50,608 nucleotides of DNA from a virus (lineage: Duplodnaviria; Heunggongvirae; Uroviricota; Caudoviricetes), in the IMG/VR virus record IMGVR_UViG_2667527522_000001, one strand, 5' to 3'. Of this stretch, positions 9,730 through 27,535 are shown piece by piece. The position numbers were made by a program, and so were the translations under genes. The notes beneath the pieces were generated by a model, which was given only the letters and a program-made list of their open reading frames with translations, did no database searches and was not told where the DNA came from. Every line of letters starts with the position of its first letter. Positions within the stretch are counted from its first letter, which is position 1.

Positions 9730-10953
9730 TTAATAGCAGGTCGTATTTAATAAGCTAGCGTACCATTCCATCATTACTTGTCGATCTTTAATATATTGCG
9801 CATGATTGTAAGTACCTCGAATAGAGTTCTTATCAACATGCGCAAGCTGCATTTCAATCCAGGCACTTTCAAACCCATGCTCATGCAAGATGGTGCTCAT
9901 GGTATGCCTGAAACCGTGACCCGTTAACCGACCGTGATAACCCAGTAGTTTTATCACTTTGTTGATGCTGGCTTCGCTCATTGGTTTACTGACGTCATTC
10001 CGGCCAGGGAAAACGAGGCTGTAATTCCCTGTTATTTCTTGCAGCTTTTTCAGGATATTGATCGCCTGAGTTGATAACGGAACCAGATGGGGGCGGCGTT
10101 TCTTCATCCGTTCTTTGGGGATCTCCCATAAGGCATTATCTAAATCAAACTCAGCCCATTCCGCTGCACGTAGTTCAATTGTTCGCACGCCTGTTAGCAT
10201 CAACAGCTGCGTGGCGTATTTGGTAACTAAACTGCCCTGATAGTTATCCAGAGCATTAACGAACTCGGGCAACTCGCTTTCAGTCAGGAACGGGAAGTGT
10301 TGGGTTTTAGGTTTGTTGAGTGCGATAGCTAAATCGGGTGCAAAATTATACTTTGCTCTACCAGTGGCAACAGCATAACGAAGCACTTCACCACAGCGGC
10401 GGCGGATCTTACTGGTTTGCTCTAGCGCACCTCTTTTCTCTATTTTTTGCAGGACGGTTAGCAGTTCTAATGGTTCAATCTGCTCAATTGGGCGCTGGCC
10501 GATAAAAGGAAAAATATCCTTTTCCATACAATTGAGAACCTCTTTTGCATAACCCTCTGACCAGGTGGCTTTTTTCGATGAGTGCCATTCTCTGGCCACA
10601 GACTCAAAGCTGTTCTCATGCGCGAACTGCAAAGCAATCTTATCTGCTTTTCTGGCTTCACTTGGGTTTATCCCGTTGGCTAACATCGAACGCGCTTCAT
10701 CACGTTTGGTACGTGCCTGTGCCAACGACACATCGCCATATACGCCAAAGGAAATCATCTTAGGCTTACCTGCAAAGCGATAGCGAAAACGCCAGCCTTT
10801 ACTGCCCGCTGTGTCGATCAGGAGTGATAGCCCCATACCATCGTTAAGCGTATAGGGTTTGTCCTTCGGTTTTGCTCTTTTTATTTGGATGTCAGATAGC
10901 AGCATGTGTATAGAAAAAAGATCGAACTCAGTTATACACAATGTTATACGCAA
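9730..10953 (-). CDS. int: Tyrosine integrase, P4 type
   Basis: 407 aa; N-terminal KRAKPKDKPYTLNDGMGLSLLI arm-binding type; C-terminal GHGFRHT...LAHVD...RGTYNHAQY catalytic region. Confidence 0.9.
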   Translation of the reverse strand: MRITLCITEFDLFSIHMLLSDIQIKRAKPKDKPYTLNDGMGLSLLIDTAGSKGWRFRYRFAGKPKMISFGVYGDVSLAQARTKRDEARSMLANGINPSEARKADKIALQFAHENSFESVAREWHSSKKATWSEGYAKEVLNCMEKDIFPFIGQRPIEQIEPLELLTVLQKIEKRGALEQTSKIRRRCGEVLRYAVATGRAKYNFAPDLAIALNKPKTQHFPFLTESELPEFVNALDNYQGSLVTKYATQLLMLTGVRTIELRAAEWAEFDLDNALWEIPKERMKKRRPHLVPLSTQAINILKKLQEITGNYSLVFPGRNDVSKPMSEASINKVIKLLGYHGRLTGHGFRHTMSTILHEHGFESAWIEMQLAHVDKNSIRGTYNHAQYIKDRQVMMEWYASLLNTTCY

Positions 10954-11364: not shown

Positions 11365-11380
11365 TCCGAATAGGGAATCG
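11365..11380 (-). other. 16-nt match to the T-arm region of tRNA-Arg (argW-like); att core candidate
   Basis: Minus strand reads TTGCAGGTTCGATTCC, 19 nt upstream of the alpA start. Confidence 0.5.
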
Positions 11381-11390
11381 AACCTGCAAA

Positions 11391-24837: not shown

Positions 24838-25120
24838 CCTACGCAAAGAAGCGCGCGGCAGAGAATGCCAGGTACGTATTTACGGCGTATGCAATGGCAA
24901 TCCTGAAACTACAGTTCTGGCACATTACCGGATGGCTGGAATTTGCGGAACGGGAATGAAGCCTGACGACCTGATCGGCGCATGGGCTTGTAGCGCGTGT
25001 CGCGATGAAATCGACCGACGCACCCATAATCTCGACAACAAAGACGCCAGACTTTACCACCTCGAAGGCGTGATCAGGACGCAGGCGATACTGCTGAAGG
25101 AGGGGAAGATTAAGTCATGA
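24830..25120 (+). CDS. Cys-rich nin-region protein (YbcO-like)
   Basis: MANLRKEARGRECQVRIYGVCNGNPETTVLAHYRMAG...CSACRDEIDRR. Confidence 0.55.
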   Translation: MANLRKEARGRECQVRIYGVCNGNPETTVLAHYRMAGICGTGMKPDDLIGAWACSACRDEIDRRTHNLDNKDARLYHLEGVIRTQAILLKEGKIKS

Positions 25121-25641
25121 ACGGTAAAAGATATCCAACACAAAAAGAAATCAATGAATTGTATGAATATAATAGCGAAACAGGTTTGTTTATATACAAG
25201 AGAAGAGAAAGTGCAAGAGAGTGCTGGAATTCAACATATGCCGGTAAGATTGCTGGTTCTATAGATGAAAAAGGATACGTTCGTATATCTGTAAATAAAA
25301 AAGTTTGTCGAGCTCATAGAATCGCATGGATATCCTTTTATGGAAGTGAACCTGATGGGGAAATTGACCACATAAATGGAGTTAAAAGCGATAACAGAAT
25401 ATGCAATTTGCGCGTTGTAGATGATAAACAGAACTCAAGGAACAGAAAAAAGCCTATTAATAATCGCTCTGGAGTAATGGGGGTTGCCTACTATAAGAAG
25501 AATAAAAAGTGGGGCGCATATATAAACAGTGATAATAAAAAGATATTTCTTGGATTATACGATGACATATCTCTAGCCGTTAATGCCAGAAAATTGGCGG
25601 AATCACGATTGGGGTATCACCATAATCATGGGAGAGGATAA
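25117..25641 (+). CDS. Second HNH-AP2 homing endonuclease, paralog of 24065-24571
   Basis: HRIAW...IDHINGVKSDNRICNLRVVDDKQN; fits exactly between neighbouring stop and start codons. Confidence 0.8.
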   Translation: MNGKRYPTQKEINELYEYNSETGLFIYKRRESARECWNSTYAGKIAGSIDEKGYVRISVNKKVCRAHRIAWISFYGSEPDGEIDHINGVKSDNRICNLRVVDDKQNSRNRKKPINNRSGVMGVAYYKKNKKWGAYINSDNKKIFLGLYDDISLAVNARKLAESRLGYHHNHGRG

Positions 25642-26004: not shown

Positions 26005-26189
26005 ACGCCACAATTCAAACGATACCAGAGCTTCTTATCCAGACACGAGGCAATCAGACCGAAGTGGCAAGGATGCTTTCCTGCGCAAGAGGAACAGTGC
26101 TCAAGTACAACCGAGACAGCAAAGGCGAGCGTCACGTAATAGTTAACGGCGTCCTGATGGTCAAACAGGGCAAGAGGGGAAGGCGATGA
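26001..26189 (+). CDS. NinH-like protein
   Basis: ...GNQTEVARMLSCARGTVLKYNRD...IVNGVLMV resembles lambda NinH. Confidence 0.65.
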   Translation: MNATIQTIPELLIQTRGNQTEVARMLSCARGTVLKYNRDSKGERHVIVNGVLMVKQGKRGRR

Positions 26190-26674
26190 GCATAAGAGAA
26201 CTAAACCTCACCAAAGAACAGCACGAGTGGCTGAATGGCTGGCTTGAACTGTGGGGCGCATGGGTTTATTCAGGTCGTCTGGAAAAGCGCATGAGCAGCG
26301 TAATAGCTAAGTTCATGGAGAGCGTAGAGCCGGGAAGAGTTATGATAAGGCCAATGTGTAATGATGATGATGGAATGTTGATTTCTCAGGTCGTCGATTC
26401 CGTCATGTACATTGACAAGAAAGCCTTTGGCATCCTCCTCAGCTACTACGCCCACGGCTCTTCCAAGCACGCCATTGCATCTTACTATCATCGCGTCGCA
26501 AGACCTCGCAAGATGTTATGCCGGGGCGGCGGGCGCATTCAAAAACCATCGCTCGCAACCTGTCGACGGGAAGTTGACGAAATCCTCAATGCCTCGTTGT
26601 TTATGATTTACCCGGTTCTGGATAGTGCGTTTAAAAACCGGAAACGTGTAGAGAAAATTAAACATGTAGCATAG
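26186..26674 (+). CDS. Q: Late-gene antiterminator Q
   Basis: 162 aa; LELWGAWVYSG motif; sits just upstream of the late promoter and lysis genes. Confidence 0.7.
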   Translation: MSIRELNLTKEQHEWLNGWLELWGAWVYSGRLEKRMSSVIAKFMESVEPGRVMIRPMCNDDDGMLISQVVDSVMYIDKKAFGILLSYYAHGSSKHAIASYYHRVARPRKMLCRGGGRIQKPSLATCRREVDEILNASLFMIYPVLDSAFKNRKRVEKIKHVA

Positions 26675-26680
26675 AACGTG

Positions 26681-26760
26681 TTGACATCATTGAGCAAATG
26701 AGCAACACTATTCGCATAAGCTGCCGTTAGTGACTCTTAAGTTGCAACGGTGGCTTTTTT
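26681..26760 (+). promoter_or_regulatory. Putative late promoter PR' with qut/tR'-like terminator
   Basis: TTGACA at 26681; hairpin CCGTT...AACGG followed by T run at 26754-26760. Confidence 0.35.
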
Positions 26761-27211
26761 TGTTTGCACAACAGGTAAGAGCATTGAACCCGCAGACCTC
26801 GCGGAATTGGTGAAAGGTGCCGCGCAGTGCTCTTATCGTTGTGGTGAAGCTCAATGGCGAGCTAGCAGATAGGCGACAGTGAAAATACTAGTCATGTAGC
26901 TGACCGCCGCGCGTACTGCAATCGGCAGCGCACCGATGGAAGCCGGTTCGATTCCGGCCGCCACAACCCAAACTGAGCCGTAGCCACTGGCTATCCTGAA
27001 TTCATCAGTGATAGTTACGCTGCGGCATTCTACGCATGACCTTCGTGAAAGCGGGTGGCAAGAGGCTGCGCTAACAACCTCCTGCCGTTTTGCCCGTGCA
27101 TATCGGTCACGAACAAATCTGATTACTAAACACAGTAGCCTGGATTTGTTCTATCAGTAATCGACCTTATTCCTAATTAAATAGAGCAAATCCCCTTATT
27201 GGGGGTAAGAC

Positions 27212-27535
27212 ATGAAGATGCCAGAAAAACATGACCTGTTAGCTGCCATTCTCGCGGCAAAGGAACAAGGCATCGGGGCAATCCTTGCGTTTGCAATGGC
27301 GTACCTTCGCGGCAGATATAATGGCGGTGCGTTTACAAAAACAGTAATCGACGCAACGATGTGCGCCATTATCGCCTGGTTCATTCGTGACCTTCTCGAC
27401 TTCGCCGGACTAAGTAGCAATCTCGCTTATATAACGAGCGTGTTCATCGGCTACATCGGTACTGACTCGATTGGTTCGCTTATCAAACGCTTCGCTGCTA
27501 AAAAAGCCGGAGTAGAAGATGGTGGAAATCAATAA
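27212..27535 (+). CDS. S: Holin, lambda S type with dual start
   Basis: [41 protein letters not shown]... Confidence 0.9.

Follow-up and report, generated by a model that had tools for sequence, protein, structure and literature searches.

Positions 26838-26967 of the window, as we call the whole 50,608-nt stretch of phage DNA analysed here (IMG/VR record IMGVR_UViG_2667527522_000001; one strand), are, judging by their sequence, the complete and intact gene of an undescribed family of phage tRNA-like RNAs about 130 nt long. The predicted RNA is a cloverleaf resembling that of tRNA-Arg, with a fifth arm of 55 nt, probably a dimerising one, set between the D arm and an anticodon-like arm. No Rfam family, genome annotation or paper in the literature searched covers the element or its sequence. 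The window is a lambdoid prophage with the order Q, pR', tR' hairpin, 450-bp spacer, holin gene S, R and Rz; the element lies in the spacer, and is termed here module B, while the hairpin that overlaps its 5' end is termed module A.

Architecture of the tRNA-like unit

26838-26967 (+): tRNA-like RNA gene (module B), 130 nt, a five-way junction according to covariance model R1, covariation and RNAalifold
26838-26846 (+): acceptor 5' strand GTTGTGGTG, pairing with 26959-67; 7-bp core at 26840-46
26849-26862 (+): D arm GCTC-AATGGC-GAGC with G18 and G19; stem invariant, loop conserved
26865-26919 (+): extra arm X, 55 nt; nine compensatory pairs, and its removal leads to an ARAGORN tRNA call
26887-26892 (+): self-complementary hexamer ACTAGT in the X-arm loop, the proposed site of kissing-loop dimerisation
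26921-26937 (+): anticodon-arm-like hairpin ATCGG-CAGCGCA-CCGAT, stem invariant; alternatively a class II variable arm
26942-26958 (+): T arm GCCGG-TTCGATT-CCGGC, three of five pairs with compensatory changes
26959-26970 (+): acceptor 3' strand CGCCACAAC (CGCCACA(AC), 26959-67) and CCA (26968-70), from covariation and ARAGORN

Several of these parts are those of a canonical tRNA. The acceptor helix has 9 bp in the window; its inner 7 bp are paired in every variant and covary (alignment columns 3-9 and 124-130), two pairs more than these seven are usual, and zero bases separate the acceptor 3' strand from the 5-bp T stem on which the helix would stack. The two halves of the elbow, G18 and G19 in the D arm and UUCGAnU in the T loop, are present in all variants, as GCTC-AAYGGC-GAGC and TTCGAYT. 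The dinucleotide AA lies between the acceptor 5' strand and the D arm, and in an 8-bp register the discriminator is C26967, followed by CCA at 26968-70. The X arm is made up of a base GCAG/CTGC, a TA/TA step, a distal helix (26872-79 / 26900-08) and a 20-nt loop (26880-99), with a nearly invariant bulge, GCGCG, at 26909-13; the junction sequence AUAG is likewise nearly invariant across variants. The 17-nt hairpin that follows has a 5-bp stem (26921-25 / 26933-37) and the 7-nt loop CAGCGCA.

An earlier sequence-only reading had picked out the 3' portion of this unit, 26921-26966. The ATCGG/CCGAT stem, T arm and acceptor 3' strand that it described are all there, and its anticodon loop is indeed non-canonical (A33, C37). 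The acceptor 5' strand and D arm that it could not find are present also, the former as the nine paired bases of 26838-46 and the latter in canonical form at 26849-62; they were overlooked because the 55-nt extra arm separates them from the rest. It rightly took the location for a tRNA slot of lambdoid phages, since Sf6 has its tRNA-Asn and tRNA-Thr exactly here, and of the two identities that it offered, decayed tRNA or structured RNA, the second agrees with the complete, covarying five-way junction.

Evidence for the fold

At minimum free energy, 26838-26972 folds into a closed five-way junction of acceptor, D arm, X arm, hairpin and T arm (z = -2.55), and it is retained when the unit is folded inside 265 nt of leader context. 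We tested a hand-specified structure on an alignment of 32 distinct variants (A4): 94.4% of cells are paired, as against 30-42% when the 3' partners are slid, compensatory changes occur in 17 of the 38 pairs, and none of 500 shuffles attains any of the five covariation measures. Covariation of the structure is far above chance. By helix, compensatory pairs number 5 of 9 in the acceptor, 3 in the base of the X arm, 6 of 9 in its distal helix and 3 of 5 in the T stem; the stems of the D arm and the 17-nt hairpin show no variation in A4, an invariance that is partly a matter of ascertainment, and both arms are also kept in relatives retrieved by BLAST or by the other search pattern. Without a structure as input, RNAalifold arrives at this five-way junction too, and 15 of its pairs covary. 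The covariance model R1, built from A4, detects one copy in the window, at 26838-26967, with 147.6 bits and E 1.6e-31. Real tRNAs fit R1 weakly over their full length, and their anticodon arm then falls on the 17-nt hairpin.

Two additional pairings were considered. A pseudoknot between GCGC of the 7-nt loop (26928-31) and the GCGCG bulge (26909-13) would join two nearly invariant segments, and the sole change in the loop, in loci L133 and L175 (locus numbers are ours), is uncompensated, so that the variation speaks neither for it nor against it. Pairing of the loop CUAG with a junction GCUAG is rejected, the junction being constant while the palindrome varies.

A palindrome in the loop of the extra arm

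The hexamer in the X-arm loop is ACUAGU, UCUAGA, GCUAGC, UCGCGA, ACCGGU or UCUGGA, self-complementary in all 32 variants, which none of 500 shuffles matches. Its pair 1-6 is UA, AU or GC and its pair 3-4 UA, GC, UG or CG; UCUGGA, the hexamer of the second commonest variant, is self-complementary only as RNA, by G.U pairs. Because adjacent bases are unable to pair within one molecule, the hexamer would pair in trans, and its kept self-complementarity suggests, as the simplest reading, kissing-loop pairing of two copies. Precedents for such contacts are the dimerisation site (DIS) of HIV-1 and the loop-loop pairing of phi29 pRNA. Module B resembles them in its 6-nt self-complementary apical-loop sequence, its A-rich flanks and the compensatory upkeep of the palindrome; it is unlike them in that its dimerisation is only predicted and that it has no link to genome packaging.

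Likeness to tRNA-Arg

ARAGORN finds no tRNA in the native window sequence (0 genes on the + strand in standard, intron, relaxed and tmRNA modes; tmRNA, transfer-messenger RNA). Rfam gives nothing in this region at gathering thresholds; at E up to 10 no tRNA match is listed, the only match being to the tmRNA ends, at 20.2 bits against a gathering threshold of 47. Neither finders nor models, then, call a contiguous four-arm cloverleaf of about 73-93 nt. The tRNA and covariance-model scans envisaged in the sequence-only reading thus return neither of the outcomes that it held against itself: no intact tRNA is found by ARAGORN, and a tRNA-like alignment does exist. The comparison that it proposed with tRNAs of Shiga-toxin (Stx) phages came to nothing, since among phage records and E. 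coli genomes no host or Stx-phage tRNA is similar past the T arm.

Deletion in silico of 26864-26920 converts the sequence to one that ARAGORN calls as a 75-nt tRNA-Arg(GCG), with an 8-bp acceptor, discriminator C and CCA at 26968-70. A search of 50,697 phage records and 5,426 E. coli genomes with this 75-nt body yielded no arm-free version; all matches covering at least 80% of it are split in two pieces that span 128-132 nt. The hairpin at 26921-37 is identical to the anticodon stem-loop of E. coli argQ at 12 of 17 positions, and to take it for an anticodon arm, as had been done before, is reasonable in view of the tRNA-Arg(GCG) call and of where its loop varies.

The loop, C-A-G-C-G-C-A, has A33 instead of U33 and C37 instead of a purine; A33 is found in all loci but L186 and C37 is invariant. 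In scans of IMG/VR each of positions 33 to 38 was in turn allowed to change, with the flanks fixed and position 32 free (C or U). Position 34 changes from G to U in 7 loci (9 with L133 and L175), in several backgrounds and contexts, and UCG, like GCG, is an Arg anticodon; position 33 changes from A to U at one locus, where canonical U33 is restored; position 32 changes from C to U three times; at positions 35-38 the single-position scans of IMG/VR gave no real variant. Variation confined to 32, 33 and 34 is the pattern expected of an Arg anticodon loop. C35 and G36 are identity elements for arginyl-tRNA synthetase.

Other features speak against an ordinary elongator tRNA: besides A33 and C37, the D loop lacks A20, the acceptor helix has 8-9 bp in most variants, and position 26 is where the fifth arm exits the core. 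The window encodes CCA at 26968-70, in an 8-bp register, and the N-leader variants encode it in a 9-bp register; the types represented by Akira, L160 and L146 do not encode it.

Distribution and genomic contexts

Pattern scans find the family in at least 120 IMG/VR contigs, as about 50 distinct variants, and also in Klebsiella, Enterobacter and Superficieibacter genomes; 174 of 5,426 complete E. coli genomes carry it, annotated over these copies by the Prokaryotic Genome Annotation Pipeline (PGAP) as nothing or as 'hypothetical protein'. One prophage with a copy is that of E. coli 55989 (NC_011748, 2691329-2691460). By BLAST, module B is present in HK75, in the virulent Salmonella siphophages Akira, Skate, seszw and INT55 (92-96% identity), in ST1UNAM (81%) and in Pantoea phage PdC23 (79%), the overall range being 79-100%. 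In 185,579 species genomes the D-arm pattern has only five true matches. All are enterobacterial in sequence, including one whose contig was assigned to a metagenome-assembled genome (MAG) of Cellvibrionaceae. Outside Enterobacteriaceae and Pantoea, pattern matches are chance only; loci L170 and L174 are chance matches in coding sequence. The copy L140 (contig JAUVQU010000080.1, 'Cellvibrionaceae' MAG) is identical to the window cassette, and its contig is probably a mis-binned enterobacterial phage. In the records of vB_EcoP-611R6 and vB_EcoP-683R2 a coding sequence (CDS) named 'polyubiquitin-A' is placed over the RNA; this and the 'hypothetical protein' calls are probably spurious.

Module B occupies three kinds of place. 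The first is the late leader, between tR' or an HNH gene and lysis cassettes that differ (window, HK75, L160). In the window and HK75 a cassette of about 205 bp replaces the tRNA-Asn and tRNA-Thr of Sf6 between identical flanks, the U tract of tR' on the left and AACTGAGCCGTAGCC on the right; in L160-type prophages a terminator-like hairpin stands 3' of the unit. The second is the N leader, between pL-nutL and N, in many prophages, one of which (L012) has the boxA, boxB and N start of lambda. These copies sit within an outer stem, CTTTGG-GGTGTG ... CACACC-A-CCAAAG (CTTTGGGGTGTG ... CACACCACCAAAG), that is common to the N-leader hairpin of lambda, in which it folds as a 15-bp helix with a bulged A. 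The third is a non-coding unit of virulent phages of the Akira/Skate type, where module B is followed, some 100 nt further on, by a tRNA of the same orientation, and is set in a gap between opposite-strand tail genes; a promoter-like site (TTGACA-17-TAGATT) and a terminator-like hairpin bound this gap. The RNA would thus be an early product in some phages and a late one in others, and in a third set would come from its own promoter.

Genes of HNH or homing endonucleases lie beside the cassette in the window (25117-25641) and at L160 (435-920), L007 (138-650), L003 (2400-2891) and L004 (2965 onward). Placed much like segB of the T4 tRNA cluster, they accompany it in several unrelated phages and may drive cassette exchange.

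Possible roles of the RNA

We hold with moderate confidence that the unit encodes a processed, non-standard tRNA-Arg mimic that would work in trans and not as an ordinary elongator tRNA. Action in trans is favoured because a cis target is not obvious in two of the three contexts. Transcription from pR' would reach the unit only when Q permits read-through of tR'; host tRNA-processing enzymes would then excise it from the leader, RNase P making the 5' end and 3' trimming and CCA repair completing the other, while for N-leader copies RNase III would cut the extended stem. The freed RNA would pair with a second copy via the palindromic loop, and would in trans stand in for tRNA-Arg, or serve as a decoy for it, toward a host factor that binds or cleaves tRNA. 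A narrower version we put forward only tentatively: that the RNA is a tRNA-Arg-derived homodimer, joined through the palindromic fifth arm and freed from early (N-leader) or late (Q-dependent) leaders, that might act outside decoding, either as decoy or replacement vis-à-vis a defence directed at tRNA-Arg or as donor of Arg for a non-ribosomal reaction.

Several points weigh against this interpretation. The constraint on the 7-nt loop is equally compatible with a tRNA-Arg that truly decodes. The 3' CCA is encoded in some lineages only, and in differing registers. The promoter scan showed no promoter belonging to the unit in the window, so that a lysogen probably does not express it. Predicted accessibility of the palindrome ranges from 0.1 to 0.9 depending on the variant; the D arm and the anticodon-like hairpin owe some of their apparent invariance to having both been search patterns; and the decoy or replacement role is pure inference.

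It is possible, if unlikely, that the RNA is instead a chargeable, decoding tRNA-Arg (GCG, or UCG in some phages) which tolerates an extra arm and whose odd loop resists a host anticodon nuclease. It becomes tRNA-Arg(GCG) for ARAGORN once the extra arm is removed, its loop changes only at 32, 33 and 34, leaving C35 and G36 fixed and both anticodons Arg, and its place is a real tRNA slot. Altered anticodon loops have been proposed to let phage tRNAs escape host tRNases (PMC10264068). Set against this are A33 in place of the near-universal U33 in all loci but one, the pyrimidine at 37, the 8-9 bp acceptor of most variants and the absence of A20 from the D loop. The fifth arm, too, leaves the core at position 26, and helix 69 of 23S rRNA contacts the D stem of tRNA near that position; nor would decoding explain why the extra arm has a conserved palindrome.

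A purely cis-acting element is rather improbable: a tRNA-like site for RNase P or RNase III that parts the leader (qut/tR' or nutL) from the mRNA and tunes the stability or translation of S or N, with no role in trans. Many prophage copies do occupy the frame of the lambda N-leader hairpin, and the window copy lies between tR' and S. The copies of Akira, Skate and ST1UNAM, however, are in a purely non-coding unit with no mRNA downstream, L160-type prophages have a terminator-like hairpin after the unit, and the conservation of D loop, T loop, 7-nt loop, bulge and palindrome far exceeds what a cleavage site needs.

We give little credence to a role at the level of DNA, whether as a sequence for recombination, as a 'boundary' or as a palindrome bound by protein. 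Modules swap like cassettes between conserved frames, 'boundary sequences' are annotated here in CUS-3, and HNH or homing endonuclease genes are nearby; but G.U pairs are tolerated both in the helices and in the palindrome, UCUGGA is not a palindrome in DNA, the signature of T loop and D loop indicates RNA, and the strand of the unit agrees with that of the neighbouring tRNA.

Less credible still is the tRNA-like domain of a tmRNA-type system of the phage, acting in trans-translation. The tmRNA ends are the best Rfam match, and the non-coding unit of Akira and ST1UNAM also holds a tag-like open reading frame (ORF), ANDDV[IV]LMAA. That match, of 20.2 bits, is however well under the gathering 47, and ARAGORN finds no tmRNA. 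The G3:U70 pair is missing: the 7-bp register gives U1-A72, G2-C71 and U3-A70, and no register gives G.U at 3:70. The window, Skate and 20 other loci lack a tag-like ORF from 700 nt upstream to 400 nt downstream, and HK75 has only a chance ORF unlike a tag; in Akira and ST1UNAM, the only two with such a frame, the tag module stands at a variable distance from the RNA (-271 and -506), which marks it as an independent cassette.

Finally, a functionless remnant, either the decayed tRNA or 3' half that the sequence-only reading had supposed or a tRNA fragment of att-site type, is virtually ruled out by the covariation: tRNA finders and Rfam pass the unit over and its anticodon loop is non-canonical, yet both acceptor strands and all arms are present, four helices show compensatory changes, and the unit, never without its extra arm, is conserved at 79-100% identity in three genomic contexts among very different, unrelated phages both temperate and virulent.

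Relation to known RNAs

Transfer RNA genes in the late-leader slot between Q and S are known from Sf6 and phage 21 (tRNA-Asn and tRNA-Thr) and phage L (tRNA-Asn and tRNA-Leu; PMC8022706). Module B shares with them the position between tR' and holin, near-identical flanks, the design of acceptor, D arm and T arm, and presumably excision from the late transcript; it differs in its 55-nt fifth arm, A33/C37, 8-9 bp acceptor and want of a tRNA call by ARAGORN or Rfam, and no phage or E. coli tRNA is related to it in sequence.

The species 1 RNA of T4 (rnaC, a stable orphan RNA) is likewise a phage RNA of about 140 nt beside tRNA genes, with a terminal stem, long extra hairpins, a T arm (CCGGG-UUCGAAU-CCCGG) and, in its cluster, the homing endonuclease gene segB. 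Unlike module B it lacks a D arm and an anticodon-like arm, and homology between the two is not detectable: R1 scores rnaC at 13.6 bits, over the T-arm part only, so that the likeness is architectural only.

With the tRNA-like domain of tmRNA (RF00023 / RF04321), the best Rfam match, module B has in common an acceptor and T arm and a long helix instead of a decoding anticodon arm. It is unlike that domain in scoring below threshold, in having a true D arm and in lacking G3:U70, and the window has neither tag ORF nor pseudoknots.

Class II tRNAs, tRNA-Sec and allo-tRNAs form the group for comparison where long variable arms and long acceptors are concerned. One could alternatively read the X arm as analogue of the anticodon arm and the 17-nt hairpin as a long variable arm, on an acceptor of 8-9 bp; and the acceptor GGUGAGGUG/CCUCACC of L021 and L044 is that of E. 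coli serV. The X arm, unlike an anticodon arm, ends in a 20-nt loop and has no 7-nt anticodon loop or anticodon-loop signature, whereas the 17-nt hairpin has exactly the size of an anticodon arm and its spacing from the T arm.

The lambda hairpin between nutL and N, the known RNase III site of the N leader, agrees with the N-leader copies of the family in its outer stem and flanks. The likeness stops at this frame: the interiors show no significant similarity (z = 0.2-0.5), and the window copy is in the late leader. Homology of the lambda interior to the tRNA-like interior was rejected on that score, and the UCCGGA palindrome of lambda is buried in the hairpin.

A conserved, covarying RNA gene has thus stood unannotated in the N and late leaders of lambdoid phages, which are among the best-studied genomes. 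It is carried by 3% of complete E. coli genomes and by virulent Salmonella phages considered for therapy, and where annotation is now blank or holds spurious CDSs the family merits an entry in RNA family libraries. Were it a tRNA mimic with a dimerisation arm, its design would be a new one to consider in the current debate on whether phages carry tRNAs for codon supply or for counter-defence, and long-known orphans like T4 species 1 RNA would gain a relative that is amenable to study.

Module A and other exchangeable cassettes

26767-26843 (+): module A hairpin, a covarying frame with a variable apical insert; fold z = -3.5

The frame of module A, CACAAC-A-GGTAAGAGCATTG ... CAGTGCTCTTATC-GTTGTG, covaries (GGTAAGAGCA/TGCTCTTATC, GGAGAGAGTA/TACTCTCTTC, GGAAATAGTA/TGCTATTTCC), and its apical insert exists among phages in at least 8 wholly different versions. 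BLAST shows modules A and B to be independently distributed, module A occurring alone in HK629, CUS-3, ep3, LPST49 and others. CACAAC...GTTGTG resembles the core sites of integron attC; it fits RYYYAAC/GTTRRRY imperfectly, and an integron integrase is absent.

The last 6 bases of module A overlap the acceptor 5' strand of module B, and the two pairings are mutually exclusive alternatives: GTTGTG can pair with CACAAC upstream or with CACAAC downstream (an a-a'-a layout). N-leader copies have the same layout with CCAAAG/CTTTGG. The alternative pairing of GTTGTG may guide folding or processing. In lambda (L131, 130-262, - strand) a small hairpin upstream of the N-leader hairpin, CAAAGC-AGAA-GGCTTTG, competes for the 5' strand of the latter, in parallel with CACAAC/GTTGTG/CACAAC of the window.

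Unrelated inserts that look structured are found in the same terminal-stem frames (GTTGTGG ... CCACAA) at L007 (HK629; ~787-895), L009 (LPST49; ~1283-1345) and L005 (1300-1405) and in the upstream part of L092; the motif CCGGAGATCAGCACCGG is common to two of these inserts. A repertoire of interchangeable RNA cassettes seems to reside in phage leaders. If the homodimeric mimic is real, it would form with module A and the other frame inserts a cassette system of structured RNAs in phage leaders.

The tag-like frame ANDDV[IV]LMAA lies at ~1331-1366 in Akira (L003) and ~1091-1126 in ST1UNAM (L005), followed by two stops in a hairpin loop, within the same non-coding transcription unit as the tRNA-like RNA. 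It matches tmRNA_permuted of Rfam at 29.2 bits (gathering 47), and may be a messenger-like module of the phage.

Surroundings in the window

26186-26674 (+): Q antiterminator gene (Pfam PF06530, E 2.4e-24)
26681-26710 (+): late promoter pR', approximate, with TTGACA at 26681-86; aligned to the annotated pR' of Sf6 and HK75
26718-26761 (+): tR' leader terminator, hairpin and U tract; the same as the annotated tR' of Sf6 and HK75, and folding as a hairpin
27212-27535 (+): holin gene S, the first late gene 3' of the spacer (Pfam PF05106)

A simple promoter and terminator scanner calls neither pR' nor tR'; both were positioned by the annotated features of Sf6 and HK75. Read-through of tR' (26718-26761) is required of the Q-modified polymerase. 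Between cassette and holin start, 26975-27211, the 240 bp are shared at >95% identity with Sf6, HK75 and HK629; no ORF there exceeds 50 amino acids (aa).

Elsewhere in the window, two known prophage regulatory RNAs score above their Rfam gathering thresholds, isrK at 2063-2140 (+; 68.9 bits) and C4 antisense RNA at 2221-2308 (+; 81.1 bits). The T-arm region sequence GGTTCGANTCC occurs twice, against 0.06 occurrences expected by chance. The second GGTTCGATTCC copy, at 11374-11384 (-), is a T-arm-like fragment only, of about 15 nt and with no cloverleaf. Directly downstream of it are a small ORF (MQHELQPDSLVDLKFIMADTGFGK...) and, at 9730-10953, an ORF of 407 aa; the fragment looks like a tRNA-derived att-site piece of an integrative element.

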